Source: Antedon mediterranea
Lineage: Eukaryota; Animalia; Echinodermata
Assembly: GCF_964355755.1 (NCBI RefSeq)
Contig: NC_092679.1
Location: 4,122,201-4,186,200, forward strand
Length of the DNA stretch: 64,000 bases
Direction of reading: 5' to 3'
The notes under the pieces were generated by a model, which saw nothing but the letters and a program-made list of their open reading frames with translations, did no database searches and was not told where the DNA came from. This document shows, in pieces, positions 3,001-52,441 of this stretch. The translations under genes and the position numbers were made by a program. The number at the start of each line of letters is the position of its first letter. Positions within the stretch are counted from its first letter, which is position 1.

Positions 3001-3866
3001 ACCAGAAAAACTAAAATAGGTCTCCATCATTTTCAGTAACATAGTTGTCTCTTGTTCGATTCCAAGGAGTTCGACATACACTGGAATACTTCCTTGCCAG
3101 TAGTTGCTGCTGGATTCAAATGTTAAACTCAATTGCGATCCAGTCTTGATACGGATGAACTGATTGAGAATCTCAGTACTAAAGTACTCTCCTGATATCC
3201 AGACGGTCTGTGTGTGTTGAAACTCTTTCTTCACAGAATGCAAGACTTCTACCTCTAACGATGGAAAGCAAAGAAATGGTGACAGACAAACTTCCGAGAA
3301 AAGGCGAAAACCTGACCCAGAAGTACTTTCATAAGCGAAAACATTTTGTACTTCAATAAGAACTTGATTGCTGAGATTCTCTAATCGTCTGATCATATTT
3401 AGAACAGTGCTTGGATGGGAATTGCTAAGCAGTACATCATTGGCATTCCAGAGAGTTGTCAAAGTTAATTTAGACTGCATACGTATTTCAGCCAAAGAGT
3501 TGGCAATCAGTTTCAAATCTTGCTGTAATAACGCTGGGAAATAATTTTTAATAGTGGCACTCAAATCAGCGACTACAGATTTCAGATCATAATACAAATT
3601 ATCAAAGCCATCAACCATCAACTGCTCAGCCATTGCATTTAGTTGGGGCGATAGGTTTTGTAGATCATATATAATGTCTGTCATGCTGTTAAGATCAGTC
3701 GGAAGTTCCAACTTCGGTGACAAGTCATAGTCCACAAACACCTCTACATTTGGCTGGTCTGTCTTAAGCAACCAGGAGAAAGGTGTGTTGTCAAAAACAC
3801 CAAATGACGTCGATGATTCCATCCTTATTCCTCGATCAGATGAAAATGACCCATCTACCAAAAAAT
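1..3866 (-). CDS. Copy 1 giant exon 16 (partial): beta-rich region, coiled-coil/Cys hairpin, furin sites, two Ig domains
   Basis: Colinear with the 1330-aa ORF at 25034-29026; net offset differs by 27 nt, from a 24-nt and a 3-nt in-frame indel. It is probably missing from the ORF track because it has no stop inside the window; I spot-checked rather than translated every codon. Confidence 0.85.
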
Positions 3867-6800
3867 CTAAATAGACAACAATTAACTTTTATAAAATTAG
3901 AATTATCAATATCATTAGGCTTACAGTCTAGGTTATACAATCTCATAGATTTTTGTTGGTTGTAAATTGTTGGATCTTATGATGCAGTAAGACTCACCAC
4001 CAATACTGGAGCTCAATATCGGAAGATTTGCTTGATTTGAAATGAAATTCAATTCTACGTCTTCGCCAAGCATTTTCCAGAATAGGCTAATTTCGGAATC
4101 TCCAACTTGCTGCAACGTCCAACGTTGTACAAACAGATGACTAAACAGCTGTTGATATAAACATCGCATTTTTTACTCACAGAAAATGTTATACATCCTC
4201 CAAATTGATATATAGAAAATAGGCCTATAGGGTATGTATGTGTACTTTAGGCCTACGTATGTGTACTTTAGGCCTATGTATGTGTACTCGTATGTGTACT
4301 TTAGGCCTATGTATGTGTACCTTAGGCCTATGTATGTGTACTTTAGGCCTATGTATGTGTACTTTAGGCCTATGTATGTGTACTTTAGGCCTATGTATGT
4401 GTACTTCAGGCCTATGTATGTGTATTTTAGACCTACTTAAATACGGTATTGCATATTTAACTTACAAATTACTTCTGTTCACTCCACCCACGAAAGAAAT
4501 TTAAAAAATACAAAATACCTGTGTAACATTATCCAGGGAAACGTGGATATCCCCACTACCTTCGACTTTTGCAGACACCGTGTTGTTGATGTAGTAAGAG
4601 TATTGTAGATTGGCCAAAATGGTGACGTCATCCTCATTGTTTTTATCACTTGGATTGAGCAGAGAAGATTGAAATTGTGACTTATCAATTTTTCCTGGAT
4701 TGAGTATATCAGATTTTGAAAACGCAAGAAAATTCACAGATACTTCAAGAGAATCATCAGGATTAATATTCATGACGTAACTTAGGAGATCTCTTGAACC
4801 TTCTGGAAACACCATCATCACAGATCCAGATGTCATTTCACAAACACCCACAACAAAACAATATTTTCCTTTGAACGGCGGTACTGGCAAAGATACAAGT
4901 CTGCCACCAATTGTAAATTCTGCCTTAGAGAGTAAAAAGACAGAATACTGGCTGTCACTGGAAACGGGTGCAGATGAACACCATTCGATTGATTTTACCT
5001 CAGTGCCTCTAAGACTCAGTGTTGACAAAGATGTTTTAGCATTCAACGGATCTATATCTGCAGATATAAACGTCATCCAGTCTGGCAAAATATTTTCAAG
5101 TTGGCGGGTATAATTGCGATACAAAGAGTTAAACTGAACAAAGCTTTGAATATTAGCCAATTTTATATCTTTACTTTGACAGTTGTCACGTGGTGATGCC
5201 GTTGTCAAACTGCTTCGAAATGTCTGTCCATCAAGACTAAGCGGCAGTTCGAATGTGCGTGTTGTCAGTGATACAACTCCATTAGTAGTCTCTAAAGAAG
5301 GGCTATTGCTCTTTGTCCATTCTTTGGTAGAGGCATAGTCTAGTCCTGTAGGCCTACATGTGGAATGATCTGATAGTACAAAACATCCCGATGGCAGACG
5401 AAAGCCAGGTGTAAATCGTTCTTCAATATTTCCCTGCGTGTTGTTTTGGAATACGAATATTTCGTCGTCGCCTGGTGTAATGAAGTTTACTGCTTCTTTT
5501 CCTCTCAAGACATATGATACCTTGACAAACCCCTGACTATCCCCGCGAATAGAACATGTACGCTTAGTTATTTTTGAAGAAAACGATAACTCTTTTGGTA
5601 CAATATCCACTTTATCAGAATCTGTTACAATAGTTACATGAAGCACTTCATTTGGTTTGGCAATGAATTCCAAATTATAAACTTCTCCTACCCAAACGTC
5701 TGGCCAATCAGGTGTTGTTACGAATCCGTATGCGCATGTCTTTCCTGTATAACCAGTTCCAGAGCAGTCACATTGAAATCCACCTACCTCATTTTGCGAT
5801 GCTCGACAATCGCCATTTACACACGGAGTTGGCGTGCATACCTGAATTTCTAAAATAGAACAAGTATATTAGTTACTTTAAACACCGCGTTTTTCAAGGT
5901 TATTGTACCGTAAGTTTTGCTTCTCTATTTCATTTTGAAGAGAGAATACCCGTACTTTAGTGAATTACAATCTTACCAATACATTTTGGAAAAGTGCTAT
6001 TCCAAATGCCAGACCGCAGACATTTTGTAACAATGTTTTCTTCCAGGAAATATCCGGAATCACAACCAAAACTACATTTACTTCCCATTTGATTTTCGCA
6101 TGGAGAAAGAATGTATCCGTTGAGGGGCGATGAAATTTCAGGGCAGAGAATCTCTGTAAGATTATAAAAAAAGTATAAAAGCTGTTAATCGCCCATTGTG
6201 GAGTGGTAATTTGTGGAAAGATACTATCTATGTGACTGTTTTATTTTAAAGCTAAAGCCACTGAAAGTTGAGATGTACAGATATTCAGGATATTTGTCCA
6301 TACATGTACTAAGAAGATCCTCGTTTTTTTAAAAACAGAATTTAAGAAGGAATAACACAATTTCTTTAGGACAAACCTTCACAGCGTGTTCTACTACCAC
6401 TCCACACACCGTTTGGTAAACATTCTCGCAAGTCGGATCCTATTAAACGATAGTTCCATTCACACGAAAAGGTGCACGTTTCTCCTGTTGTAAATCCGCT
6501 ACATGTTCGATTTCCGTAAAAAGGTACACCGATTTCAACACAAGGGTTAGCTGTTAAAAAACACGGTGATTGTAATTGAATTAAAATTGACCATTTTTTT
6601 GTACAAAGTAACGTAGTAATAATTCAATTTTTGTATTGCCTTTTCCCTAAATTAAACAAAATCCACAATATTTATGATAGTGCTTGCGCATGAAATTATG
6701 GAGAGCCTTTGATATATCTTACCATTCAATAAATTTATGGTTACAATGAAAAGTGAAAAGGATAAGTTTAAGCAAAAATTCACTAGTCACCCGTGCAGTT

Positions 6801-23118: not shown

Positions 23119-26100
23119 TTAAATTTCTGAAGTTGTATACACATTTTCATTTGATGACTGGATATTGTCAATGCCTTCTAGAGTTTCTTTATCTTCATCT
23201 TCTTCTTCCACGCACTTTGTTTCCAAACGATCCATCATCTTATCGAGGTCATTCTTATCGTCTCTCTTCTTGTTAACTATGGAAAAAACATGGCAGAATA
23301 ATGCCAACATTGTCCGATTTAGTTTTCAGTAGTAGAAGTATATTCTGTTTTATTATTTTCAACAAATATATATTTGTTGTCTGGTCAGTCATTTCTTTCT
23401 CTTTGGTGGGTGCGTCACACATCTATTCTTTAAAAACATACATAGAATATATGTAACATTTTCATTAATATATTTTTATCTATTTTCTTATATGAACATG
23501 ATTATAATTTTCCTATGTTATATTTCTATAACTTAGTAGAATTACTTACCTCTATACATCTTCACTTTTCTTTGTAAGATATATATTACGAATACCAAGA
23601 TCAGTACAACACATCCTCCACAAACACCTCCGATGATGTAGGCCAAATTACTTTCGTCCTTTAAAAAATTGTTTAAGTGAATACTTGAATTGTTATGCAT
23701 GGTACAAGCAATACTTTGATGCCAACACGTTAAAAATTATTTGTTTAATATAGGCCTATATGTGTGTGTCCTACTTATGTGTTAACATAAGTCTGTAAAA
23801 CTATTAATTTTTGGAAAAACTGTATTTTAATTTGCATCGTATTTATAATTCTGTAATTCTCAGTTGACATTTTTATTTGTGCTATTGATTGCTAAACAAC
23901 AAACAATGATAACGTTAATACAATTGTTACGGTACAGTATATATACTAAATAAATTCTATAATGTTTACCTCTCCTGGGTTCTCTTTCGATTGTGGTGTA
24001 CTAGAAGAAACTAAAAGAAACAGATAGAAAGACAATAATTAATATACATATGCATTTTAAAGTTGATTGGATACACTTTGGTATAACAAAGTTGAAAATC
24101 GTGTTGGCATGTTCTACAAACAATTATTGTTTGAACAACGTTAACATTTCATTGTTATTTTTGCATTCTGAATAGTACAACCAATGTCACAAACCATCCT
24201 GTTTTCTATGAAATTTTCTAAATTGAGATTATAGAGTACGTACATATGACATTTTTTATATATAGATTGAAACGAGTATATACCTGCTATTAGACAAATA
24301 TACTTCTGTTACAAGCCTATCATGAATTAATTTTGTTATTTTTGGACTTACAAGGAATGTCACTGCAAATCCTTGATCCAATATCAGCTTCGGTATAGCC
24401 ATCACACTTCAGACATTCCGTCTGTCCTCTCTCAGGTTGGTAAAATCCTTGTGGACATTGCTCACACACTGCATCCTTTCCGCGATACGATCCAGGAGGA
24501 CAGTTTACTAAAGAAAATATACGCACAATATGTGTCAACTAAAGATAATAACAGTGAAATGTGATTGATCAAACAGACGTAGAGATAATACAGTACAATA
24601 CGCCATAGTGTATATTGATTTAGGCGAAACTTACGGCAAGTTCTTGATCCAGCGTCAGTATTAATGTAACCGTCACATTTCAGGCATTCCGTCTGTCCTT
24701 CTTTGGGCTGGTAAAAACCTACTGGACATTGCTGACAGACGGCAGGCAAGTTATTATTTCCACGATACGATCCGGGAGGACAGTTCACTAAAATAAACAA
24801 CAAAGGAAATGGTGTTTTCCCCTTTTCAATATTATTTCAATATCAAAATCAGAAATACACTATCAAATTTTATGTGACAAAAACAATGTGATGTGACCAT
24901 AATTATGGACATGATGATCATATCAGATCATATCACATATCGCTACCATATTTGGGCATATCACTACCATATTTGGTCACATCACACAGTTTGACAGAGC
25001 GTTATATGTACAGAACACAAAACAGAGGAGCGATCAGAAACATTTTGTGAACCAAAAGATAAAGAACAACTCACCACAAATATAACCGTCGGCGTGCGCG
25101 TATTGATGGTTGGGACAGATAGGACCGTTTAAACCAGAATTGAAGCCTGTCACTTCCAATACTTCATCTTGATGTTCAAATAGTTCACCTGGACTCAGCA
25201 AGTTCTGAAGTTGCACAACTTTGTCAAGGATATCGTCAATCTTATCTTTTACCCGTTGCGCCGAATCCTGACGACTTGCAGTTACGATATCAATAGAAGA
25301 TGCAGCCGTACTTTTTATTTCAAATGTTATCTGTGTAAGAAATGTTTTCCCTTGTGGATTGGACTCCTGATAGTTGAGACGTTTTACTTCAGGATCATTA
25401 TTACTAATGACATTTGTAATAGTATCTTCCAAAGATGCGTTTGATGACTTAGAAGAGTCTTCTCGATAAAGGTCTATGGTTATATTGGTTGAGTATTCCG
25501 GCATCGATATGTCAAGAATGTGAAGTCTAGCAGCATTTGAAAGCACTCGTCCGTGTTCGTTCCATGCTTCGCACGTATACCATCCATCTTGGGAAAAGTC
25601 TAGGCTTAATATCTCAATACTTGAACTATTCTGCCCTTGGATGGATTCCATATCTGATGACAGCGACTTCTGAAAATACCATTGATAGTCTGCTAGTGGC
25701 TGAGCTGAGGCTTCACAAGTGAAGTATGCGCCTTCAATGTTACCATGTTCAATTTCAGTATCTTGAGGATGCTCGCTGATAAAAGGAGCGAACTCAACTG
25801 TGACGTCACATTGTAACGACGACACCGATGTCACTTCATTGGAAGCCTGGCAGGTGTAAGTGCCAGTATGAGATGCATTTGCCTGTTTTATAGTTAGTGT
25901 GTTTGAATTTATTCCCTTTAGTATTTGACCATTGAACACCCAAGCAAATGTTGGCAAAGGATTTCCAGTTGCTTGACATGCCAGAGAGAAAACTTCTCCT
26001 TCGACTGCTATTATTTTTGGTTCTGGGTGCTGGGTGATTATAGGCGCTTCTAAGCATACATCGTTAGAATCTTTCAGAAAGGCAACCTGGTCTAGTACAG

Positions 26101-29100
26101 TTGTCGCGCTTATTTCTGCCTCATCAGCACTTGACGAATTGTTGTTAATAAAGGTTGATACAAATTCATCGAGTTCAACAACATCTTCATAACTTGCTGT
26201 ATCTTCTGAAAAATATTTTAAAGCAATCAATTCAGTCGTTAAACAGTCGTAGAACCCTTGGCAGTCCGTCAGACCACTGGAGTTATAAGTATACGTGTCC
26301 ATTACAATTTCCCATTTAGTTAGAACATCACCATCAAGTAATATTTTTGTGTTGTTTGCTTTCATCTTTGCTGAATCAATAACTTTTGTTAAAGCATTTT
26401 GTTCAACTCCGTCATATTGATCGGCATCTTCTAAATCATCCATAGTCAAGTTGAAATACAGTAATGCACTGCTATTTATAACACGTGGTGTCGTTGATGA
26501 TAGATTGTACAAATAGTCATTTTGAAACTTCTCTTCATTTTCTAACGCATCAGTATTAGCGGCTTTGCTGATATTGACAATCTCTAGCAGCGTTTGAAAT
26601 GAACGTTCAATAAAACCCAGTATGTTGTTATAGTCTACGCACCTCTCTTCATTTTGAACGACTCTTTGATCTCTCTGAAGACTGCTGGTAATGTTGAGAT
26701 CTAGTGAGTCGTTGGTTAGAGTATAAGATATTGTTTGCATAGGTGGTTGTTCAATGATGGTAGTAGTATCGCGTTTCTTTCGAAGTCCAATATGTCTCGT
26801 GTCTCTTTTTCTTCTAATTGATCTTGATATATCACCAAACAGTTCTTCCGTAATGAAGAGTGCAGCATTTTCAATAGTGTAATTCAAATTGTTGACGTCA
26901 ATGAACACTTGAATCTGTACTGGAGTGGATGACAGCGTTAAGGAACAGACTATTGGAATGGTAGTAGTGTCTTCTTCAACTAGATCAATGTTAAATTGTA
27001 ATTCTTCTAACTTTAAACTTTCTTCGAGTGATCCGTTGATTTGGTGTTGCTTTATGATCAGCCCTGCTTCAACATCGTTACGTATTTTGATCAATGCATC
27101 TTGAGTATTGTTGAGATTTCTCTGTAGTGCCAACACTCTGTCTGATACTACCTGATGTTTGTTCAATGCATCATCAAGTTCGATTACAGCTTCATTCAAT
27201 GCTGCTTCGGCAACTGATGCAAGTAAAACAGCATTATCGAACTCTTCAATTGGTACAGCGAGGTCAGGTGTTAATTCTTGTATTAAACCAAATAATTTAC
27301 TTCGTTGTATTCGGCATTGTTCGTTACTGTTAACACAATCTCCATCCGACATTTTTACACTACAAGGAACTTCTTCTGTGTTAAATGTTGTTATCTGACC
27401 CACGAACTCATTCCTGATACAAGTGCTACAAGACTGAAACATAACTGTTATCTCAACTGGTTTTAGACACTCTTCACAGCATTCACCTTTTGTATACGAA
27501 ACTCGACTGCTCCTCTTTACTGAAGTTACTAAATTTATTGCCCCACCAAGATAGTTACCAGTATAAAAGTCGAAAGCCGCTTTAACAATTTTGACTAGAT
27601 TAAGACCAAATTTCTTAACCGCCGTTGGGATCCAACAAATCCAGCAACAACTTGTTCTCTCATTGACAACGGTTGATTCATCTCGATCACTACAACATTC
27701 ATATGGTACAGACGCATAAACATCTTCTTTATCAGTAACAATTTTACTTCCTGGTACACATACTCCACTGCATTCCTCAATTACACATACGTTGTTCAAG
27801 TTTTCTTCTAACTCCTTTGTATCGTTGCGTGCATTTTTCAAAGACTGGCGTGCACTTTCAACTGCAATGTTTGCTGCCACAACGTCTTCAACTGCAGAAT
27901 CATGTTTTTGTCTTGCTTTAACAACATTAGCATTTTGTACAGCTACCTCTTCCAAAGCATCATCTAATCTTGTTGTTGCTGTTTCAACAGACTTGGAAGC
28001 TTGGCTCAGCCTTTGTTCACTATCGTCAACTGATTTCTGAGAAATCGAAATAATTTTATTTTTGAGGATTCTTCCCAATGATAATGGTCCTTCAGCAGCA
28101 ATGTTACCATTTACAGATAGAACCATTGACTCGAATGAGCTCAATTCTGAAGTAGCATTTCCAACCATATCAAATAAGCCCCAAAGTTTACCAGAAAAAC
28201 TAAAATAGGTCTCCATCATTTTCAGTAACATAGTTGTCTCTTGTTCGATTCCAAGGAGCTCGACATACACTGGAATACTTCCTTGCCAGTAGTTGTTGCT
28301 GGATTCAAATGTTAAACTCAATTGCGATCCAGTCTTGATACGGATGAACTTATTGAGAATCTTAGTACTAAAGTACTCTCCTGATATCCAGACGTTCTGT
28401 GTGTACAAAACTTCTACCTCTAACGATGGAAAGCAAAGAAATGATGACAGACAAACTTCGGAGAACAGGCGAAAACCTGACCCAGAAGTGCTTTCATAAG
28501 CGAAAACATGTTGTACTTCAATAAGAACTTGATTGCTGAGATTCTCTAATCGTCTGATCATATTTAGAACATCGCTTGGATGGGAATTGCTAAGCAGTAC
28601 ATCATTGACATTCCAGAGAGTTGTTAAAGTTAGTTTAGACTGCATACGTATTTCAGCCAAAGAGTTGGAAATTAGTTTCAAATCTTGCTGAGATAACGAT
28701 GGGAAATAATTTTTAATACTGGCACTCAAATCAGCGACTACAGATTTAAGATCATAATACAAATTATCATAGCCATCAACCATCAACTGCTCAGCCATTG
28801 CATTTAGTTGGGGTGGTAGGTTTTGTAGATCATATATAATGTCTGTCATGTTGTTAAGATCAGTCGGAAGTTCAAGCTTCGGTGACAAGTTGTAGTCCAC
28901 AAACACCTCTACATTAGACTGGTCTGTCTTAAGCAACCAGGAGAAAGGTGTGTTGTCAAAAACACCAAATGACGTCGATGATGCCATCCTTATTCCTCGA
29001 TCAGATGAAAATGACCCATCTACCAAAAAATCTAAATAGATAACAATTAACTTGATAAGATTAGAATTATTAATATTATTAGGTTATAAAATCAGATTTT

Positions 29101-32100
29101 TGTTGTAAGTCGTAGGATTTTATGATGCAGTAAAAACTCACCACCAATGCTGGAGCTCAATATCGGAAGATTCGCTTGATTTGAAATGAAGTTCAATTCT
29201 ACGTTTTCGCCAAGCATTCTCCAGAATAGGCTAATTTCTGAATCTCCAAATTGCTGCAACTTCCAACGTTGTACAAATAGATGACTAAACAGCTGATGAG
29301 ATAAATCACCTTTTTTTACGCACAGAAAATGTTATACATCTTCCAAATTGATAAAAAAGAAATAGGCCTATAGGGTATGCGTGTGTACTTTAGGCCTACG
29401 TATGTGTACTTTAGGCCTACTTATATACGATATTGCATATTTAAATTACAAATTGCTTATGTTCACTCCACCCATGAATAAAAAAATGTAAAAAATACAA
29501 AATACCTGTGTAATATTATCGAGCGAAACGTGGATATCCCCACTACCTTCGACTTTTGCAGACACTGTGTTGTTGATATAGTAAGAGTATTGTAGATTGG
29601 CCAAAATGTTGACGTCGTCCTCATTGTTTTTATCACTTGGATCGAACAGAGAAGACTGAAATTGTGAATTATCAATTTTCCCTGGATTGAGTATATCAGA
29701 TTTTGAAAACGCAAAGAAATTCACCGATACTTCAAGAGAATCATCAGGATTAATATCCATGACGTAACGTAGAATATCTCGTGAACCTTCTGGAAACACC
29801 ATCATCACAGACCCAGATGTCATTTTACAAACACCCACGACAAAACAATACTTCCCTTTAAACGGCGGTACTGGCAAAGATACAAATCTGCCACCAATGT
29901 TCAACTCTGCCTTGGAGAGTAAGAAGACAGAATACTGGCTGTCACTGGTAACGGGTGCAGATGAACACCATTCGATTGATTTTACCTCAGTACCACTAAG
30001 ACTCAGTGTTGACAAAGACGTTTTAGCATTCAACGGATTTATATCAGCAGATATAAACGTCATCCAGTCTGGCAAAATGTTTTCAAGTTGGCGGGTATAA
30101 TTGCGATACAAAGAGTTAAACTGAACAAAGCTTTGAATATTAGCCAATGTTATATCTTTACTTTGACAGTTGTCACGTGGTGATGCCGTTGTAAAACTGC
30201 TTCGAATAGTCTGTCCGTCAAGACTAAGCGGCAGTTCGAATGTGCGTGTTGCCAGTGATACAACTCCATTAGTAGTCTCCAAAGAAGGGCTATTGCTCTT
30301 TGTCCATTCCTCGGTAGAGGCATAGTCTAGTCCTGTAGGCCTACATGTGGAATGATCCGAGAGTACAAAACATCCCGATGGCAGACGAAAGCCAGGTGTA
30401 AATCGGTCGTCAACTCTTCCCTGCGTGTTGTTCTGTAACACGAATATTTCGTCGTCGCCTGGTGTAATGAAATCGGCTGCTTCTTTTCCTCTCAAAACAT
30501 ATGATATCTTGACAAACCCCTGACTATCCCCGCGAATAGAACATGTACGCTTAGTTATTTTTGAAGAAAACGATAACTCATTTGGTACAATTTCCACTTT
30601 ATCAGAATCTGTTACAATAGTTAAATCAAGCACTTCATTTGGTTTGGCAATGAATTCCAAATTATAAACTTCTCCTACCCAAACGTCTGGCCAATCAGGT
30701 GTTGTTACGAATCCGTCTGAGCATGTCTTTCCTGTATAACCAGTTCCAGAGCAGTCACATTGAAATCCACCTACCTCATTTTGCGATGCTCGACAATCGC
30801 CATTTACACACGGAGTTGGCGTGCATACCTGAATTTCTAAAATAGAACAAGTATATTATTTACTTTAAACACAACGTTTTTCAAGGTTATTGACCGTACG
30901 TTTTGAAACAATGTTGCTTACATTTATTGAATTACAATGTGTGCATGTACAACCAAAATCTTACCAATACATTTGGGAAAAGTGCTATTCCAAATGCCAG
31001 ACAGCAGACATTCTGTAACAATATTTTCTTCAAGGAAATATCCGGAATCACAACCAAAGCTACATTCACTTCCTAATAGATTCTCGCATGGAGAAAGAAT
31101 GTATCCGTTGAGGGGCGATTGAATTTCAGCACAGAGAATCTCTGTAAGATATTATAAAAGCAAGTATAACAGCTGTTTATCGCCCATTGTGGTAAATTGT
31201 TGTAATTTGTGGAAAGATACTATCTATGTGACTGTTTTATTTAAACCCAAAGCCACTGAAAGTTGGGGTGTACAGATATTCAGGGTATCTTGTCCATACA
31301 TATACTAAGAAGGTTATCGTTTATTTTTCAGAATTTAAGAATCAATAATTCAATGTCTTATGACAAACCTTCGCAGCGTGTTGTACTACCACTCCACACA
31401 CCGTTTGGTAAACATTCTCGCAAGTCGGAACCTATTAAACGATAGTTCCATTCACACGAAAAGGTGCACGTTTCTCCTGTTGTAAATCCGCTACATGTTC
31501 GATTTCCATAAAAAGGTACACCGATTTCAACGCAAGGGTTAGCTGTTGAAAAACATTATGATTGGAATTGAATAAAAATTGATCATTTTTTGTATAAGGT
31601 AACGTACTGTAGTAATATTTCTAAATTTGTTATGCCTTTTACGTAAAGTATGCCTGTACATCAAATTAGTGAAGAGCCTTTGATACATCTTACAATTATT
31701 TATTTAATTATTATGGTTACAATAAAAAGTGAAAAGGATAAGTTTAAGCAACAAATTTACTAGTTACCCGTGCAGTTTTTATTATCAGGATCAAGTGTCC
31801 ATCCATCTTTGCAATCGCAGCTGAAGCTACCGATTGAGTTGGAACAGATTTGCCCACAACCGTCTATACCAACGCTACATTCATTAATATCTGGTAAACA
31901 TAAATAAAGAGAAAATAAAATTATTGTTATTAGACTATTTTGAAAGGAAATGGAGATATTATTTAATTTGAAAGCAGAAATTGTGTGTTACTGATGCAAA
32001 AAATGTTATTACTTGTTGCAAGAGAACCAGTAACCCTCAATAGTATCTGTGAAATTGTCTGTGATTTTAGTTCTTACCTTCACAGTTGTATGAATCGTAG

Positions 32101-35100
32101 GCTTCATATCCTGTGTGACAAAGGCACTCAAAACTACCTTGTGAATTTGTACAAAAGTGACAGCTTGCGAAAGAGCATTCATTGATATCTGAAAAAAAAA
32201 ACAGTTATTAGAATATAATTTTGTGTGTGTTGTTGAACCAATACCAATACGTTCTTTAATTTTCATAAAATGTGTTCTTTATTTTTCTTTTCTCTTTGCT
32301 TTCTTCCTACGATATGTAATAGACGCTTTTAATTTTGTTATTTAGTTCTAATTTGAAGTTTTACTTCATGTGTTTTTATACCTGTGCAGTTAGTTGTCCC
32401 AGAATATCCATCTGAACAATAACATCTAAAGCTTCCAGGAAGGTTTTCACAAAAATGTTCGCACCCGGCATTGTAGAGTTCGCATTCATCCACATCTATT
32501 TAAAATAAGGAAGTATACTTAAATGTAAATAATATAATTTCGTAATGAAAGTTTAATCAAATATCTGTGAAATGCACTGTTTTTATTGCAAGACAACATT
32601 TATGAACATGTTACTGTATTCCATTCACAATACACGAACATTTCACAGAAAACAAACTGTTTTACTTTGTTTATAAACAATGCTTTTAAGGACAGTTCGG
32701 ACATTAACATGTACTGAATCCGTTATTTCATATATTAAATTCTGCCAGGACATATGTGATAAAGACGTAGTTAAGATATATCCAAATCAAAACCCATGGT
32801 TTAATAAGTCTATTTAGGATTTGATACGAAATAGAGATAGGGCTTTCAGATCAAATGATAAGGATCTATTTAGAAAATCAAAATACGAGTTAAGAAAGGG
32901 AATAAATAAAGCCAAGAGAAAATACGGCCATACTGCGTTGAAACACCGGTTCTCGTCAGATCACCGAAGTTAAGCAACGTTGGGCCCGGTTGCGTTCTGG
33001 ATGGGAGACCGTCTAGAAATCGTGGCGGGTGCTGTATATACTGGAGAGTGATGGTGTAATGGTAATATTGGACTAGCATGTGATAGGCATGGTTCGAGGT
33101 TATCTGTACCATACTAATTGCATCCTTAGGCAAGATGCTTTACTCTCATTGCCTAATCTGGTAGGCGCTGCACTGCTGGCTGCCGTGGGTCCGTGGAGGG
33201 CCTAATCCGAATTTCCTCACTGAGGACAAATATTAATACAAAATACAAAAAAATACAAAAAAATATAAAAACGGGTTAGAGGAAGATATATCTTCCGGCG
33301 ATTCCAGAGAGATATGGAAAAGATTAAATAAAATAACAAACTACAAACCAAAATCTGATAAAATTAACTCAAATGATGACCTACCCCAACGACTGAATGA
33401 TTTCTTCAGTCGTTTTGACACTTCCCCTCTCCATCAAGACACTAATTATGAAAATGGTAATGATGTCCCGTTAGTTGTTCTTGAAGAGGATACTTGTAAT
33501 GAGTTTAGTAGATGTAAGTCAAATAAATCAGCTGGTCCAGAAGGTATATCCCCTATGCTTGTTAAACATTGTTGCAAACAGATTGCCCATATTTTTACAT
33601 ACATTTTCAATTTCTCTCTTATATCTCAAATTATTCCGCGATGTTTTAAAGATTCTGTAATAATTCCGATTCCGAAACGTTCCCCAATCGAAACCCTGAA
33701 TGATTACCGACATATAACATTAACGTCGGTTCTGATGAAATGCTTTGAACATAATAGTCCTTAATTACCTGAAGGCCAAATGTCCAATATCAGTTCGCCT
33801 ATAGACCAAACCGGTCTACTGAAGATGCTGTATCGATCACTTTGCATAGGATCTTAGAGCATCTCGAACGTGATAAAAGATATGCTAGGATTTTATATAT
33901 AGATTTTAGTTCAGCATTTAATACGATTGTACCGTATAAGTTACACACTAAGATGGTTGAAATCGGTTTCGATATTTCTATATGTAACTGGGTGTTAAAC
34001 TTTTTAACTGATCGACCCCAACGTACTAAAGTGGGTACCATTATATCGGATAAGCGTATTATAAGTACAGGTGTACCACAGGGCTGTGTTCTGTCGCCCT
34101 TTCTTTTTACTTTATTTACATATGACTGTGTTACCTACTACAGTAACTGTCATATCGCTAAATTCGCGGATGATACTACCATTGTAGGTCTAATCAATGA
34201 TGACAGTGATGAGTCTGATTATCGCAACCAAGTTAAACGAGTTGAAGACTGGTGTAACGAAAACAATCTGTTCTTGAATGTATCTAAGACCAAAGAAATG
34301 GTTGTAGACTTCCGTAAATCATATATCCAATATTTATTAATGGTATATCAGTTGAGTTTGTAGAAGAATTTAAATTCTTGGGATTTTTTATTTCAAATGA
34401 TCTGAAGTGGCATATTAACACACGTAACATTATTAGAAAGGCCCAAAGAAGAATCTACTTCCTACGTAGACTTAGATCATTTGGTATAAACTCTGAAATA
34501 ATGTCTTCCTTCTATAGGTCAGTTATAGAGAGTGTCATATCGTATTCTTTAACGGTATGGTTCGGTAGCGCTACCGAAGATCAAAAGCGTGACCTAAATA
34601 GAATAGTCAAGACCGCATCGCGTATAATTGGATCTGCACAATTGCCTTTGGAGAACATATTTTCGGATCGTCGGACCAAAGATGATCAATTTCATCCGGC
34701 CTCTAGTATGTTTCAGTTGATGCGCAGCGGTCGGCGATTTCGTTCTATTAAAGCCGATAAGGCACGATTTACAAATAGTTTCTTTCCAGGAGCTATTAGA
34801 GCCTTAAACATATTATGTAGACACTTTTTTTGTAATTTTTTTGTTTTTGAGTTCGTGTTGTGTCCGTTGGATATTGTGCTCCGCCAACAGAGCAAACAGA
34901 ATTTCTATGTTTTTTCTTAAAACAAATGATAATAAATGATACTTGACTTGACTTGACTTGAAACTAAATCAAAATGAATAGTTTTTTAGTTCTATTTACC
35001 ATTTTGACATCTACTTCCGTCATATCCTTCGGGGCAGTCGCAGTTGTTAGGTCCTGTACACTGGCCGTTGTTCTGGCACTGAGGCTGACAAACGGCTGTA

Positions 35101-38100
35101 AAAAAATGGTTTTACGTAGTTTACCGGAACCGTAAAAAAAGAGAGAAAGTTCAGACAACGTGATTGTTAGAGTAAGTGCGATTACTAACGCTCACGTGAC
35201 TATACCAGGAAAACACCAATCGTAACGATAACGGTAAATTCGGACTTAACAATTTCGGATATAAAGCTATGTCACTATCAAACTAGTTTGACAAAAAAGT
35301 GTGATTTGTCCAAATATGGTAGTAATATTACATCATTATGGGCACATCACATTTTTTGTGACATGAAGTTTGACAGTGTAGACAGAGCTTTAAAATATCA
35401 TATATATGAAAACATTTATAATGGTGTACCATGTATCATGGTACATTTTTTTGTTAAAAAAAGAAGTTAACTGAAATATCGTGTGCCATTATAACAAAAT
35501 TAAGATCTTACGTATGCATTCGGTAAGCATTGAGAGTTCATATCCAGGAAGGCAACTGCATTCAAATCCACCGTAGTTGTTAGTACATATATGAGCACAT
35601 CCATCAGTGTTCTCCCAACATTCATCACCTAAAATCCAAAATTATGGCATCATAACTCATTTCTTCTTTTATATAGTCATCATTAATAATAAGATGGACC
35701 TTTTAACAATGTGAAAATGGTATAACGTTTGTTTAAACGTAGGATTTTGTACGTAACGCAACGTAAGTGATAGATTATTCGAACAATCGCGTCTGATTAG
35801 TAAACTTCATTGCGTTGCCTCTCTAGTGGAAAAATAACCAAATGCCATTTTCTCATTGACGTATAGTATTATACTTACGATCATCACAAGCATCTCCTAC
35901 ATAAAAATCTTGACATTCACAATGATCTGGAGCCGTGCACTCTCCTTTAGCACACAGTGGAGTACAAGTAACTAGAATTATGAATTACATTGTTAATGTC
36001 GAAAATCGATTATGAACAATATAATGATATTTTATTGGTTTTCATGACTGCAAACTTTGGAAAACTTGGCATTTTCTCGAGTTTGGAAACAAAAGTTCGC
36101 CAGTTTACACTATAGTTTTAATTCACGGGAAACCATGTTGTTGACAGTCAGTATAATGATAGTTTACTACGTACCTTCACAGTCACGCCCATTTGGTGTC
36201 AACACATATCCCGTGTTACATTGACAATAGTAACTTCCAGCTGTGTTCCTGCAATGGTGCTCACATCCACCATTGTTATCCGCACATTCGTTGATATCTT
36301 TAAAAAAGTAAAAATATTATAGGGTTTAACACATTTTTTTTTCTTGGACACACCTCATTGAATGTACACAGTAATACAAGTCTAATACAGTATTAAAATA
36401 AAAAGTGTAGTACAGTATTAAAATAAAAAGTGTAGTACAGTATTAAAATAAAAAGTGTAGTACAGTATTAAAATAAAAAGTGTAGTACAGTATTAAAATA
36501 AAAAGTGTAGTACAGTATTAAAATAAAAAGTGTAGTACAGTATTAAAATAAAAAGTGTAGTACAGTATTAAAATAAAAAGTGTAGTACAGTATTAAAATA
36601 AAAAGTGTAGTACAGTATTAAAATAAAAAGTGTAGTACAGTATTAAAATAAAAAGATGCTTAATGTTAATGTTCTCTGTCAAGATTTGACCTCATTTTCA
36701 TCTCATTCCTGATTTATTATACTAAACTAAAGTACTAAAGTGTATATTGCATTGTTTCAACACCTTTTAACAATCACTAATTGTGGTAATATTCAGTAAT
36801 CTATACATAGAAAATAAATTGGTAAAATTGTTTATTGTTATGCGTAACTTACCAGAACACCGTGTTCCTTGAAATCCACTGTTGCACTCACAAGTGTCAG
36901 GATCCTCGCAAGTTCCACCAACGCCACAATCATCGGGTGGGCATAGTGCTATAGTAAAGATCGTTATTTAGATAAAATAAACCACAATAGCTACTCAAAA
37001 GGTTACTGATACTGTATACATTTTACATGTGTTAGAGTAAAACAACTGTAGTAGAATGCTTTATTAAAGCCAGCCAAATTAAATTCACTTATACAATTAT
37101 ATCAAGTATTATAATTATAAACTCACGAATTGTACAGCCTCCTAATCCATCTTCAGCCCAACCACTACAGCAATAGTAGTTTGTCGAGTACACGTTCCAA
37201 TACTGGGTGCGGTATGATCGGGTATATCCACGACTTAAAGAAAATAGTATTTACACATAATCACAACAGTAATGGAAATAACAAAAAAAATGAAGAATTA
37301 ATCAATTAAAAAAAAGTATAATAACACAGTTGTTAAATAATATTATACTGTAGTTTAATTCTTTCTAAATTGCCAAAACACTATAGGCCTATATTAAGCA
37401 ATACAAACAAAAGAGTGCTAACGTGCCAAAAACATTCGATGATAGAGAAACATAGGCTTACTCGCAGCTTGGTCTTATTAAAAAAACGTCAAGTAGAGTC
37501 ACCCATTGTATTTAATAAAAAAATTGCTGCTGCCAAATTATTTCAGAAATAATGGCTACTCATCTGACAAATTTCACATTTAGGGTTGCTGAGAATGACT
37601 TTCCTTTTACGCTGCCTTTTTGTTGAAGTTGTGAACACACAAAACACAACTCGAAATGTTAGAAACTTCAGAGGTCTATTTAGTCAATCCAGGTCAATAT
37701 CAAATAATCACTATAAAATAGTCACTCATTAAAGACATACTTAATGTGTTTATTTCTTTAATTTACTTACCCATATGTTGTGCAGCGGAACAAGCCGAGA
37801 AAGCCACAACTCGTGGAACCTGTAGTTTGATGAGAGACTGAGTAGGAGACTGCACGTGAATGTCGAACAGATTCTTGCCTACTGCAGACATTGGCACTAA
37901 AATAATGTAATTTTGTTACTCAAGTGACGTTTTTTTTTTTTTTATTTGAAAACTTTAGTACAGATACCGTATTATCGGATTGAATTATATCCGTTTCCCT
38001 TTGGACACTCCAAGGAATAGAAGGATATGCATCGATGGTGACATCAAACGATTTTTCAAAGCATAGGGTACTACTATTTACACACAATTTGTATTAAATA

Positions 38101-38998
38101 TTGTAATTACATTTATTAATAATCTAATCTAATATTTCTAAGAGATCGTTTAATTCGAATTCAGAAAAGTTAGAATTAAATTCGTCGCATAAAGTTTTGT
38201 TCGTCGCCATAGGATCTAGCGCTAAACATATGAAATACTAATCATGACACTAAGACCGCGAAATTTATCCAACAATAGTAAAGGTTGTAATATAATATAA
38301 TAATAATATAACAATTTATATAGCGCACATATCCACTAAAAGTGCTCAAGGTTATTGCGCGCATGTGCAGTAAACAATATATTAGGCACGCGACCGTTTC
38401 GTTGTTGCGACGGTACTGTGTTTTTTTTTTAAACATTTTTCCGCGCTCTGTCGGTTAGAGTTATAGAAGCTTTGATCTCAAACGGATGCATATCCTTCTA
38501 TTCCTTAATTTATTGACACACTCACAGCCGTAACAAAAGATATATGATACAACAACATGTTATATTGTGGTTTACAGTATTGGGCTAATTGTTATGAATA
38601 CGAACACTAAGTCCACCACTGCTCCTTGAGCACTGAGAATAAGACGCTATATAAATATCAATCATCATCACCACCACCATCATCATCACTTTCAATACAA
38701 TGTGTATCGATTAAGCAAAACAGGTTGTACTTTTAAACAATTATATTATAGTGAATGATGACATGAGCGCGTTTCTCTGTATACAACAAAATACTTCCTA
38801 ACTTTATTTTCGCACAATCTCCTTAAACTAAAACTAATTGGTAGTTTGTCCCACTCAATTAACGTTTTTGATAACTACTTTTGCTTGCCAAACACTTAAT
38901 ATCGAATTTAAAGAAAAAAAGTTAACTTACCGCCCTGGGCTCGGCACAGAAATGATAATATTTACTAATGAAAAACATATCAACAACGAAAACATCAT
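23119..38998 (-). CDS. Receptor copy 2, complete: 21 exons, 2526 aa, SP-EMI-NIM/cbEGF x8-Sushi x2-EGF-unknown-coiled-coil/Cys hairpin-furin-Ig x2-SEA-like-GCC2/GCC3 x2-TM-cytoplasmic tail
   Basis: Exons 38998-38931, 37896-37771, 37233-37127, 36948-36853, 36297-36175, 35971-35879, 35628-35512, 35095-35000, 32495-32382, 32188-32078, 31890-31768, 31542-31369, 31141-30965, 30836-29506, 29292-29142, 29031-25075, 24787-24635, 24507-24352, 24010-23970, 23658-23550 ([26 protein letters not shown]), 23276-23119. All GT-AG; total 7581 nt, divisible by 3, ends in TAA. Confidence 0.88.
24352..24787 (-). CDS. Two GCC2/GCC3 (ephrin-receptor-like) Cys-rich repeat exons
   Basis: NCPPGSYRG...[21 protein letters not shown] and NCPPGSYRG...[21 protein letters not shown]. 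Confidence 0.9.
25075..29031 (-). CDS. Copy 2 giant exon 16 (3957 nt)
   Basis: 1330-aa ORF with two I-set Ig domains ([15 protein letters not shown]...GTYTCQASN; [15 protein letters not shown]...[10 protein letters not shown]), heptad helices and RRKR/RKKR sites. Confidence 0.93.
29506..30836 (-). CDS. Copy 2 exon 14: EGF domain plus unknown ~400-aa domain
   Basis: 404-aa ORF extended 5' to the acceptor at 30837; same length (1331 nt) as in copy 1. Confidence 0.9.
32922..33037 (+). pseudogene. 5S rRNA-derived sequence (SINE head, not a canonical 5S gene)
   Basis: tacggccatac...gaagttaagc...ggatgggagaccg...gggtgctgta; diverged, with no oligo-T terminator after it. Confidence 0.8.
32922..33260 (+). 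mobile_element. Composite SINE with 5S rRNA-derived head, tRNA-like segment, core and A-rich tail, nested in the LINE
   Basis: 32922-33037 aligns by eye to 5S rRNA. It is followed by tggtgtaatggt...ggttcgagg A/B boxes, catccttaggcaagatgcttt and an (aaatacaaaa)n tail. Empty site in the copy 3 LINE near 51340. Confidence 0.8.
36386..36655. repeat. 25-bp minisatellite (tacagtattaaaataaaaagtgtag), about 10-11 identical units
   Basis: Directly visible; ~1.5 units at the paralogous site ~9832-9870. Confidence 0.95.
38011..38506. mobile_element. MITE with ~22-bp TIRs
   Basis: aaggaatagaaggatatgcatc ... gatgcatatccttctattcctt. Confidence 0.65.
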
Positions 38999-47824: not shown

Positions 47825-50800
47825 AGGTTGAAGTCAACAGTGTCGATCGTGGTTTTCAGCACAACTTAGCAAAAGAATCAGAACTGTATATAAAATGAAT
47901 CTTAACCTCAATAACAAATCAATGTCAAGTAACTTCATCTTACACAAGAGTGAGGATTTTGCTTATAAGGGAAACGACAGTGAAATGTAATGTATTTTTT
48001 TACATTTTTGAAGTCGTATACACATTTTCATATAGTGATTGAATATTTGCAATTCCTTCTACAGTTTCCGTATCTTCCCTTACACACTTAGCATCCAAAT
48101 GATCCGCCGTTTCATATAGCTCATTGTCTTCGCATGTCTTCTCGTTAGCTATAGAAATGTTTTTTAAAGCATGGGTTACATACAAAGCTTGTATTTAGTA
48201 ACAATACTTTTTTTTTACTTTTACAGTGTTGGGATTTTTATTATTGGATTAAGCTTGCGTTGCGCCTACGTCGCTGTGTTGCGTGGGTTCAGTAGGCCTA
48301 CAATTGGGAACCAATATTTACATTTTCGAATAGGCAATGTTGTCAGTCAGAATCAGTTATTTAGTTTAAAAAAATACTTACCTCCTCTGTACGTCTTTGC
48401 TTTTCTTCGGATGATGAATATCAATAGCAGGATAAAAACAACACATCCTCCACAAACTCCTCCGACGAGATAGGGCAAATTACTGTTGTCCTTCGAAAAT
48501 ATAAAAATGCTCAGTACAATTATTTAACTTTTGGATAACTTTTTATAATACAAATTTGATCCTGTACTTCTATTAGGAATTTCTAAAGCAACAGTGCTTA
48601 TTACAAGCGACCAGCAGTTGCCAGCCAACAAAACTTCTAAAATTATTACTGTAGTAAGTTTACCTCTTTCGGTGACTCCTCTTTAGGTAGTTGTGTAATA
48701 GAGGAATCTTCAAATAAAATAAAGAAATGAATGAAGACATGGTCAAAATGTGCATTTTTGTTTTGATGCTTCGGTATAAGATGGCAATTGTGTTCGCATG
48801 TTCTATAACAAAAACAATTGCTATTTCAAACCGAATAAGACTCCACTTTATTTCCTCTGACATACAGAAACACTCCTTGTATGTTTGTCTGTTTGTGAAC
48901 AGTCTAGAGGTTGTTTTTATCCGAATCTTGCAAAACTTGGCCACAATAGTTTTTGACCCAAAATCGATGGTCAACTGCAAGGTCACAACGTACAACGCTA
49001 ATTAAAAAATATTTATTAAAATTTAACAAAGAACCGCCCTCAGCAGGATTTGAATCAGGGTTTTTAACCATGAAAAGCTAGAGCATACCTATTACACCAA
49101 ACTCACAGAATAGTTGTTATTGTTTCCTTATAGCACAGCCATGAAAGAGGTATTCGTACTCCCACTCCCTATGAAATGTTATAGATTACAGTATAGGCAT
49201 TTGTATTGTTTGGATCAGTGGACATCAGAGGAAAGTATTCTGCATCAAGCGTAATTATAAAAAAAAAGGCTAAACTTTAGTCTTATTACCAGAGAAAGAG
49301 TAGAACGGGAAAAAAGGAAACTGTATCTTAAATTTAAAAAGATTGGAAATTCTTGTTATTAGACTGCTGTGGTTAGTAAGAAAAGCCTGTAACACTTACC
49401 AATACATTTTGGAAAAGTGCTCTTCCAAATGCCAGACAGCAGACATTTTGTAACAATATTTTCTTCCAGGAAATATCCGGAATCACAACCAAAGCTACAT
49501 TCACTTCCTACTTGATTCCCGCATGGAGAAAGAATGTATCCGTTGAGGGGCGATGGAATTTCAGCACAGAGAATCTCTGTAAGATTATAAAAGCAAGTAT
49601 AAAAGCTGTTTATTGCCCATTGTGGTAATTTGTGGAAAGATACTATCTATATGACTTTTTTATTTAAAGCCAAAGCCGACTGGAAGTTGGGGTGTACAGA
49701 TATTCAGGATATCTTGTCAATACATATACTAAGGAGATTATCGTTTATTTTTCAGAATTTAAGAATCAATAATTCAATGTCTTATGACAAACCTTCGCAG
49801 CGTGTTGTACTACCACTCCACACACCGTTTGGTAAACATTCTCGCAAGTCGGAACCTATTAAACGATAGTTCCATTCACACGAAAAGGTGAACGTTTCTC
49901 CTGTTGTAAATCCGCTACATGTTCGATTTCCATAAAAAGGTACACCGATTTCAACGCAAGGGTTAGCTGTTGAAAAACATTATGATTGGAATTGAATAAA
50001 AATTGATCATTTTTTGTATAAGGTAACGTAGTAATATTTCTAAATTTGTTATGCCTTTTACGTAAAGTATGCCTGTACATCAAATTAGTGAAGAGCCTTT
50101 GATATATCTTACAATTATTTATTTAATTATTATGGTTACAATAAAAAGTGAAAAGGAAAAGTTTAAGCAACAAATTTACTAGTTACCCGTGCAGTTTTTA
50201 TTATCAGGATCAAGTGTCCATCCATCTTTGCAATCGCAGCTGAAGCTACCGATTGAGTTGGAACAGATTTGCCCACATCCGTCTATACCAACGCTACATT
50301 CATTAATATCTGGTAAACATAAATAAAGAGAAAATAAAATTATTGTTATTAGACTATTTTGAAAGGAAATGGAGATATTATTTAATTTGAAAGCAGAAAT
50401 TGTGTGTTACTGATGCAAAAAATGTTATTACTTGTTGCAAGAGAACCAGTAACCCTCAATAGTATCTGTGAAATTGTCTGTGATTTTAGTTCTTACCTTC
50501 ACAGTTGTATGAATCGTAGGCTTCATATCCTGTGTGACAAAGGCACTCAAAACTACCTTGTGAATTTGTACAAAAGTGACAGCTTGCGAAAGAGCATTCA
50601 TTGATATCTGAAGAAAAAAACAATTATTAGAATATAATTTTGTGTGTGTTGTTGAACCAATACCAATACGTTCTTTAATTTTCATAAAATGTGTTCTTTG
50701 TTTTCCTTTTCTCTTTGCTTTCTTCCTACGATATGTAATAGACGCTTTTAATTTTGTTATTTAGTTCTAATTTGAAGTTTTACTTCATGTGTTTTATACC

Positions 50801-51922
50801 TGTGCAGTTAGTTGTCCCAGAATATCCATCTGAACAATAACATCTAAAGCTTCCAGGAAGGTTTTCACAAAAATGTTCGCACCCGGCATTGTAGAGTTCG
50901 CATTCATCCACATCTATTTAAAATAAGGAAGTATACTTAAATGTAAATAATATAATTTCGTAATGAAAGTTTAATCAAATATCTGTGTAATGCACTGTTT
51001 TTATTGCAAGACAACATTTATGAACATGTTAATGTATTCCATTCACAATACACGAACATTTCACAGAAAACAAACTGTTTTACTTTGTTTATAAACAATG
51101 CTTTTAAGGACAGTTCGGACATTAACTTATGTACTGAATCCGTTATTTCATATATTAAATTCTGCCAGGACATATGTGATAAAGACGTAGTTAAGATATA
51201 TCCAAATCAAAACCCATGGTTTAATAAGTCTATTAAGGATCTGATACGAAATAGAGATAGGGCTTTCAGATCAAATGATAAGGATCTATTTAGGAAATCA
51301 AAATACGAGTTAAGAAAGGGAATAAATAAAGCCAAGAGAGAATATAAAAACGGGTTAGAGGAAGATATATCTTCCGGCGATTCCAGAGAGATATGGAAAA
51401 GCTTAAATAAAATAACAAACTACAAACCAAAATCTGATAAAATTAACTCAAATGATGACCTACCCCAACGACTGAATGATTTCTTCAGTCGTTTTGACAC
51501 TTCCCCTCTCCATCAAGACACTAATTATGAAAATGGTAATGATGTCCCGTTAGTTGTTCTTGAAGAGGATACTTGTAATGAGTTTAGTAGATGTAAGTCA
51601 AATAAATCAGCTGGTCCAGAAGGTATATCCCCTATGCTTGTTAAACATTGTTGCAAACAGATTGCCCATATTTTTAAATACATTTTCAATTTCTCTCTTA
51701 TATCTCAAATTATTCCGCGATGTTTTAAAGATTCTATAATAATTCCGATTCCGAAATGTTCCCCAATCGAAACCCTGAATGATTACCGACCTATAACATT
51801 AACGTCCGTTCTGATGAAATGCTTTGAACATATAGTCCTTATAATTACCTGAAGGCCAAGTGTCCAATATCAGTTCGCCTATAGACCAAACCGGTCTACT
51901 GAAGATGCTGTATCGATCACTT

Positions 51923-52237
51923 GCGTGTGGCGCAGTGTGTTGGACGTTGGACTACCGATCGTCAGACCTAGGTTCGAATCCAACTCTCGCCGCATTGCTT
52001 GTATCCGTAGGCAAGATACTTTATTTACGTTGCCTCTCTCCACCCAGGTGTATAAATGGGTACCCAGTTAGATCTAGACACAACTTTGCGCTGGTTACCG
52101 GCTGCATTATGGGAGTATGTTTCCATACGTGTTTGATCCCAAAAAATACTGGGGTAATAATCCTTGTAAAGCGCCTTTGAGCATGATTACTCATGAAAAG
52201 GGCGCTATATAAATGTGGTATTATTATTATTATTATT
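51923..52237 (+). mobile_element. tRNA-derived SINE with conserved core and L2-type tail
   Basis: A box tggcgcagtgtg, B box ggttcgaatcc, core cctctctccacccaggtgtataaatgggtacc, ggcgctatataaat plus (tat)n tail; 7-bp TSD atcactt at 51916-51922 and 52238-52244. Confidence 0.9.
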
Positions 52238-52441
52238 ATCACTTTGCATAGGATCTTAGAGCATCTCGAACGTGATAAAAGATATGCTAGGATTTTATAT
52301 ATAGATTTTAGTTCAGCATTTAATACGATTGTACCGTATAAGTTACACACTAAGATGGTTGAAATCGGTTTCGATATTTCTATATGTAACTGGGTGTTAA
52401 ACTTTTTAACTGATCGACCCCAACGTACTAAAGTGGGCACC

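Follow-up and report, generated by a model that had tools for sequence, protein, structure and literature searches.

What does a cysteine-rich segment enclosed between two long helices fold into, what kind of protein carries it, and what might its hydrophobic apex touch? The question is raised by a 64,000-nucleotide stretch of the genome of the crinoid Antedon mediterranea (here, the window), for which a sequence-only reading had proposed a disulfide-stapled rod presenting a membrane-inserting helical hairpin, by analogy with a fusion loop or the tongue of a pore-forming toxin.

A tandem gene family with a long module exon

The window consists of intron-rich animal DNA (GC 0.31 to 0.43) that carries repeated copies of one gene, all on the minus strand and delineated by tblastn with database proteins. 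Copy 2 (23122..38998) comprises about 20 exon blocks and encodes P0012 (2475 aa) and P0013 (2526 aa). Copy 1 (P0002; 1..18015) runs off the window, with its 16-Cys stem at 2122-2595. The partial copy 3 (49401-56554) consists of 11 EMI/EGF/Sushi exon blocks, with no module exon downstream within the window; its segment 49395-51344 is 97% identical to 30960-32924 of copy 2. In copy 2, an exon for the C-terminal half of an EMI-like domain (37128..37232; Pfam EMI, PF07546) is followed by EGF and Sushi exons to ∼30966, a 1331-bp exon (29506-30836) that encodes ∼440 aa without a Pfam match, and a 3957-bp exon (25075..29031) with AG/GT flanks that holds the whole module, the furin-type sites, and both Ig domains. 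The series closes with two Cys-rich, ephrin-receptor-like exons and an exon for the transmembrane (TM) helix, the latter read from sequence (23551..24797). The 1330-aa open frame originally singled out is thus real as a frame but not as a protein, being one internal exon (29031-25075) of a gene of ∼20 blocks. In run X1, for which an RNA origin is a guess, contigs depart from the window at four splice sites (25075, 29031, 29506, and 30836) and run on with other letters beyond the match (301, 154, and 1198 in three records), a hint, from one run, of spliced transcripts.

The product is a type I membrane protein of ∼2500 aa. It comprises, in order, a signal peptide (read from sequence), an EMI-like region, Ca-binding EGF repeats, Sushi domains, a span of ∼700 residues that Pfam leaves unassigned and in which a four-helix bundle is predicted, a beta-meander, the rod, the furin-type sites, a further stretch blank in Pfam, two Ig domains, ephrin-receptor-like repeats, the TM helix, and a short tail. 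The EMI assignment comes from one exon, with a score below the cut-off (E = 0.005; 18 bits against 25), and scans of the whole proteins gave no EMI match. EGF_CA, cEGF, and Sushi were found in family members, the Ig pair (25517..26044, minus strand) matches Ig_3 at E = 3.9e-29, and Ephrin_rec_like was detected in four of six scanned proteins, P0012 itself being without a match. There is nothing unusual about the EGF, Ig, and Sushi domains that flank the module. The product of the 29506-30836 exon is a second uncharacterized region of the same protein: its AlphaFold2 (AF2) model is poor past the initial 80 residues, which resemble a beta-sandwich (mean pLDDT of the base region, 42.6), and a structure search with the base region returned, from a poor model, only weak START/Bet v1-like rows (E of at least 0.004). 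Copy 2 has two annotated C termini (23122-23661, minus strand), short in P0012 and long in P0013, and the ENVY motif is found only in the long tail; EN[VI]Y motifs occur in the tails of P0013 and P0010.

Eight relatives were identified, five from Anneissia japonica and three from Antedon mediterranea, at 38 to 62% identity and all annotated as “uncharacterized”; the named relatives are all crinoid. A distant ENA protein, P0011, is ∼25% identical over the module, and its rod, furin site, and Ig pair follow one another as in the crinoid proteins. A profile search for further relatives yielded nothing new among the 7993 best candidates scored. Paralogues occur in arrays, with two full copies in the window and four Anneissia proteins whose LOC numbers are neighbors and whose contigs agree in length. 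The alignment used below, A1, covers 10 of the 11 genes (P0006 is left out), and its numbering equals that of P0001 minus 224.

The module lies outside the named domain families

The module had been described as unlike any named domain, and the searches agree as far as they reach: the stem is not covered by any sequence match in Pfam, PHROGs, NCBIfam, or the PDB. The A1 profile detected only generic coiled-coil families in Pfam, and the PHROGs and NCBIfam matches that did appear (tape measure, PgrA, and RecN) fall on the outgoing helix only and were set aside as coiled-coil noise. A sequence search of the PDB with the module gave 0 matches; profile A1 retrieved only coiled-coil rows, at E of at least 0.12, and for profile A2 the best 60 of 479 rows were all Sushi, Ig, or EGF structures. 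The stem found nothing in phages by tblastn, and no related loci were detected in metagenome contigs or prokaryote genomes. Foldseek against the PDB, a check proposed in advance, gave no match at an E value of ≤0.001. Three BFVD rows did pass that threshold but were distrusted (TM, 0.16 to 0.23; rmsd, about 60 Å). In the ESM Atlas, three Bacillota clusters scored 0.78 to 0.80, within the chance range, and P0011 gave no usable named match. The structural-alignment lists come from whole-module queries and are taken up by matches to the coiled coil or to a generic four-helix bundle, and a match to the stem fold could thereby be masked. The module may also resemble giant invertebrate lipoprotein-like proteins that combine a coiled-coil hairpin with a Cys-rich tip; none of the 11 full proteins matched Vitellogenin_N or another lipid-transfer-type Pfam family. 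No published description of the family was found in largely open-access literature, including under five LOC identifiers. As far as these searches reach, those of structure having used the whole module, it is an undescribed animal extracellular domain, new in kind.

A predicted coiled coil continued by a beta-ribbon

The AF2 monomer model of the module, built on the 10-row alignment, shows a coiled coil, two strands, and a helix-turn-helix apex (mean pLDDT, 70; pTM, 0.37; stem pLDDT, 52 to 77). In A1 numbering, the elements are a helix at 93-187, a strand at 197-251, helices at 253-264 and 268-277, a strand at 279-336, and a helix at 338-439. On the minus strand of the window, these correspond to an outgoing coiled-coil helix of 95 residues (27794..28078; P0001 aa 317-411), the 16-Cys stem (27314..27787), made up of a cap, an outgoing strand (27602-27766), and a returning strand (27347-27520) and delimited by the model and the mirror sums described below, the helix-turn-helix tip with basic residues on both flanks (27524..27598; aa 477-501), and a returning helix (27038..27343; aa 562-663) supported also by structural matches. 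A beta-meander predicted with pLDDT 67 to 83 forms the base of the rod (28097..28354; aa 225-310). Each stem strand spans ∼55 residues.

The pair of heptad helices originally seen around the cysteine segment is borne out, since both helices have a 3.5-residue hydrophobic period. Position a is large and position d small (32 to 65% A/G/S, Ala-rich in the outgoing helix), e and g are mostly polar, and a single a/d seam results; these heptad counts, like the counts of non-Cys pairs and faces given below, include P0006 and leave out P0009. Structural matches pair the two long helices antiparallel, for example with colicin E3 (Z = 13.2; rmsd, 3.3; 142 aligned) and mycobacterial RipA (Z = 13.5; rmsd, 3.3; 167 aligned), although such scores are, according to the tool, at a level common for long helices. 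Across the colicin E3/E9/Ia arms, enterococcal PrgA, and RipA (Z, 12.7 to 13.5; rmsd, 2.1 to 4.7; 132 to 179 aligned), the shared feature is a long antiparallel two-helix stalk that projects a tip; however, the match is confined to the helices, and these proteins have no cystine ladder and no sequence homology to the module. The rise per residue is 1.5 Å in a helix and about 3.3 Å in a strand; with these standard values, ∼14 nm of helix and ∼18 nm of strand give a predicted rod of about 30 nm, if straight. The predicted secondary structure, the antiparallel matches, and the paired loss and gain of cysteines described below all favor the antiparallel, disulfide-stapled rod envisaged from sequence, and the module very probably folds as two helices in an antiparallel coiled coil, extended by a two-strand beta-ribbon that carries the cysteine ladder.

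Two cysteine registers in the ladder

All 16 cysteines were found as first reported, from 27787 to 27314 on the minus strand with spacers of 20/14 and 12/18, and copy 1 keeps all of them with identical spacing. In P0001 they occupy aa 414, 419, and 423; 444 and 445; 460, 461, and 464; 516, 517, and 520; 533 and 536; and 555, 564, and 571. The mirror arrangement is closer than had been noticed. With nested pairing, the A1 index sums of the six inner pairs alternate (530, 532, 530, 532, 530, 532), and they do so by parity, even outgoing positions (220, 236, and 240) giving 532 and odd ones (199, 221, and 237) giving 530. The alternation is exact in eight of the nine crinoid rows of A1, the exception being P0009, which has indels. 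In post hoc placement tests, built after the pattern had been seen, none of 20,000 random placements fitted all six inner pairs, and 11 of 20,000 did so if the spacers alone were varied and the Cys clusters stayed intact; a looser, three-register rule was satisfied by 2 of 20,000 random placements. The pattern is unlikely to have arisen by chance.

Natural variants of the ladder point both ways. In P0009 both members of a mirror pair, C6 and C11, are missing together, and P0010 has gained a Cys pair with its outgoing member at position 243 and a sum of 530. Conversely, unpaired extra cysteines occur in P0005, P0006, and P0010 (one, in the tip), and P0006 has lost C5 while keeping C12. P0011 has 15 cysteines, three pairs of which obey the two-register rule, and its cap spacings (5-4-21 and 19-9-7) are identical. 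The disulfide pairing is predicted to be nested.

How both registers could close is a matter of strand geometry. Neighboring strand residues face opposite sides, and a regular two-strand ribbon therefore offers direct disulfide sites to one set only. Of nine crude ribbon models, three converged on a canonical form in which the shifted pairs of the opposite face were 6.7 to 9.6 Å apart (C-beta), versus 3.1 to 5.0 Å for the direct pairs; two were noncanonical, one of them with a shifted pair at 3.3 Å, and four retained high residual energy. With direct sites for one register only, the odd set would close through local distortions or link neighboring chains. A literature search on the geometry of diagonal disulfides returned nothing useful.

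The second option suggests an oligomeric needle, in which several hairpins, one of 55 residues from each chain, would form one antiparallel barrel, one Cys register would be intrahairpin and the other interchain, and the clustered tips would puncture or anchor in a membrane. The registers differ by exactly 2 and are sorted by parity, a rule that the gained pair at 243 and three pairs of P0011 obey. A two-residue shift per hairpin is the geometry of a barrel in which n equals S (10.1101/2020.10.22.346965), and the aerolysin barrel has 14 strands and a shear of 14 (PMC4947156); the 2-residue register shift of the module would fit that geometry. The distances in the three canonical models, two invariant residue pairs, Y213-G319 (sum 532) and E232-K298 (sum 530), in nine of nine rows, and the location of all four crinoid stem sequons on the odd face also fit. 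However, the non-Cys pair score is uninformative on two registers (d0, 0.108; d2, 0.015; d-1, 0.105; d3, 0.103), the two faces differ only weakly in hydropathy (P = 0.15) and conservation (P = 0.04), the sequon of P0011 lies on the even face, and a single a/d seam, with e and g positions mostly polar, runs along the coiled coil, as in a two-stranded rod. Moreover, a shifted pair came to 3.3 Å in one noncanonical model, and local bulges at the CC and CxxC motifs could close both sets within a chain. We regard the needle as unlikely, and give the same low standing to the function that would go with it, in which a needle released by furin from the animal cell surface would drive a cluster of cationic amphipathic tips into the membranes of microbes or rival cells. 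If the second register were interchain, the structure would be a natural disulfide-locked beta-needle; if the needle were true in full, animals would possess a device for membrane attack or injection that belongs to no known class.

A variable cationic tip

The tip sequences are as originally quoted. The exposed, amphipathic tip originally proposed is predicted for the crinoid members, where AF2 places it at the apex, whereas P0011 does not have a helix-pair tip: the rod is kept, and its end bears cysteines instead. The two tip helices are predicted to be 12 and 10 residues long. The first is amphipathic at P < 0.05 in six of nine crinoid rows, and the second in three of eight; P0005 has no second helix, and the P0009 tip is hydrophobic but not amphipathic (P = 0.95 and 0.75). 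The tip and its necks carry a net charge of +1 to +13 in nine of nine crinoid rows. The best 19-residue Kyte-Doolittle (KD) mean is 0.8 to 1.25 in eight of the nine rows and 1.79 in P0009. In length and hydrophobicity alike, the tip falls short of what crossing a bilayer takes, with P0009 perhaps excepted.

The tip is also the least conserved part of the module, the lowest-identity 25-aa window of 487 (0.25, versus a median of 0.52 in eight crinoid rows). Between the two full gene copies, dN is 0.109 in the stem and tip versus 0.043 elsewhere (Fisher P of about 1e-5), dS is 0.172 versus 0.134 (P = 0.52), and dN/dS is 0.63 versus 0.32 (P = 0.03). A dN/dS of 0.63 in the stem and tip fits relaxed constraint as well as positive selection, and values of >1 in subregions rest on 1 to 3.5 synonymous changes. 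Along the big exon (25075-29031 compared with 1-3867 of copy 1), dS is patchy, at 0.03 to 0.09 in the base, the tip, and the returning stem and helix and 0.16 to 0.35 in the remaining parts; gene conversion may account for this patchiness.

Furin-type sites and the proposed function

Two furin-type sites, RRKR and RKKR, were located by motif scan just past the module (26771..26815, minus strand). In 10 of 11 genes, an RX[KR]R motif follows the module and so separates the rod from the anchor; the sites lie ∼235 aa C-terminal to the tip. Cleavage there would suit a shed or heterodimeric recognition protein.

The function that we favor, tentatively and at a level slightly short of probable, is that of a stiff, cleavable antenna that presents a variable, membrane-contacting tip to microbes or dying cells. 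The predicted coiled coil and ladder ribbon would form a stiff out-and-back mast on a giant EGF/Ig membrane protein, and the fast-changing, cationic amphipathic tip, held ∼30 nm out, would grip target membranes, neither fusing nor perforating them. Cleavage by furin behind the rod would yield an N-terminal piece of ∼1740 aa (EMI-like, EGF, Sushi, and rod) that might be shed or held noncovalently on the Ig-TM stub. The tip may sit shallowly in the anionic membranes of microbes or dying cells, paralogues may differ in target, and tyrosines in the tail may signal. The predicted fold with its antiparallel helices, the paired Cys loss in P0009 and gain in P0010, the variable cationic tip, the raised dN of the stem and tip, the paralogue arrays, the EMI-like and EGF N terminus, which resembles that of the CED-1/Draper/MEGF10 engulfment receptors, and the EN[VI]Y tail motifs count for the antenna. 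Against it count the pTM of 0.37, the tip exceptions in P0011, P0009, and P0005, the unpaired cysteines, a dN/dS that relaxed constraint would explain as well, and the EMI score below cut-off; in addition, a pair of amphipathic helices may hide its hydrophobic faces by packing them together or onto a protein. Should membrane binding hold, the proteins would define a family of recognition or effector receptors new among invertebrates and offer a direct handle on crinoid immunity, with a module that is written in one exon, multiplied in tandem, and exchangeable at its tip.

The same hypervariable tip and paralogue arrays could also serve a recognition stalk that binds proteins or glycans, in adhesion, self/nonself, or gamete recognition, and not lipid. 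The different tip that P0011 carries on the same rod favors such a stalk, as do its analogues, the receptor-binding arms of colicins and PrgA. However, crinoid tips remain cationic (nine of nine), hydrophobic, and mostly amphipathic despite sequence drift, which fits a physicochemical target better than a lock-and-key one, and we consider the stalk improbable, if the closest competitor. A matrix spacer, in which the rod would space or cross-link matrix or mucus and the tip would only seal or glue rod ends, agrees with the large modular ectodomain (EMI-like, EGF, and Ig) and likely shedding, and EMI is described as a multimerization domain in echinoderm matrix proteins (PMC10381214). For a spacer, though, a hypervariable apex would be needless, as would tandem paralogues with their greatest divergence in the stem and tip, and this role is decidedly improbable.

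The original analogy with a fusion loop or pore-former tongue is weakened by the furin-type sites in 10 of 11 genes, the 10- to 12-residue helices, the poor conservation of the tip, and P0011. With cleavage sites between rod and anchor and tip helices too short for a bilayer, a fusogen or classic pore former is unlikely. A fusogen acting in cell-cell or gamete fusion, with the tip as its fusion loop, would account for the type I topology, the furin-type sites, and the two heptad helices. However, a fusion loop must stay tied to its anchor, and cleavage ∼235 aa C-terminal to the tip would part the two. No protease site lies just before the tip in the window copies, where a class I fusogen has one just N-terminal to its fusion peptide. 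The hairpin is already closed by the ladder, with no evident refolding step, and beside the single a/d seam, with its mostly polar e and g positions, there is no evident second hydrophobic seam for a six-helix bundle. The variable fusion loops of HAP2 carry amphipathic helices at their apex, and HAP2 shows that helices of this variable kind, borne on the ends of long strands, are able to enter membranes (PMC6089408 and PMC6327110). The corresponding feature of HAP2/class II proteins, an amphipathic helix atop long strands, is predicted in the module, the first tip helix being amphipathic in six of nine crinoid rows. Since the HAP2 helices insert at strand ends, the analogy is fair for the tip and unfair for the whole machine. 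No class II row appears among the structural matches listed, the module itself is predicted as a coiled coil plus one long hairpin rather than a three-domain class II fold, with the base region too poorly modeled to judge, and, unlike in HAP2/GCS1, furin-type sites lie between tip and anchor. A fusogen is thus very improbable. The helices of 12 and 10 residues are not the bilayer-crossing helices of alpha-pore-forming toxins, and the alternating faces of a beta-pore-forming toxin were not found, both being polar on average (KD, −0.06 and −0.73; P = 0.15) and the apex helical in the AF2 model. Ordered from most to least probable, the readings are the membrane-gripping antenna, the protein-binding stalk, the interchain needle, the matrix spacer, and the fusogen.

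Comparison with known systems

The whole protein can be compared with CED-1/Draper/MEGF10, EMI-EGF engulfment receptors with a cytoplasmic NPxY motif. Both are type I proteins with EGF repeats, preceded in the crinoid protein by a putative EMI-like start, and some members of the crinoid family likewise have tyrosines in a short tail. However, the crinoid protein has ∼1700 extra residues (rod, furin-type sites, two Ig domains, and ephrin-receptor-like repeats), its EGF repeats are of the Ca-binding type, its EMI match is below cut-off, and inspection by eye of six tails (P0002, P0003, P0008, P0010, P0012, and P0013) revealed no NPxY. Out-and-back long strands are shared with the T4 gp37 needle, which is oligomeric, and with the lysenin pore, the phi29 collar, and the anthrax PA pore, all of which assemble into barrels or needles; the last three were nonsignificant in Foldseek (E, 0.015 to 0.26; TM, about 0.05 to 0.08), and the module lacks the in/out membrane-spanning pattern of beta-barrel stems. 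The ladder itself recalls the theta-defensins, cystine-ladder beta-hairpins that share the antiparallel hairpin, nested disulfides, and a cationic end (PMC6327110). A theta-defensin, however, is an 18-residue peptide, compared with ∼55 residues per strand in the module, which further differs in its two registers on opposite faces, the 95-residue coiled-coil mount, and the helical cap.

Other features of the locus

Reverse-transcriptase fragments (RVT_1) with ALKBH8_N-type ORFs lie at 33842-34920 and 53120-54153 on the plus strand. Copies 2 and 3 carry them in the same intron, and they were therefore inserted before that duplication. A 21-bp tandem repeat likewise occupies the same intron in copy 1 (4236-4435; 2.5 and 7 units) and copy 2 (29382-29424; 2 units). 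Short high-copy repeats at ∼24900-24990 and 32900-33260 are covered very deeply by contigs in all four runs. Finally, a 341-bp stretch (32920-33262) is skipped by one contig in each of the four runs, possibly an insertion polymorphism.
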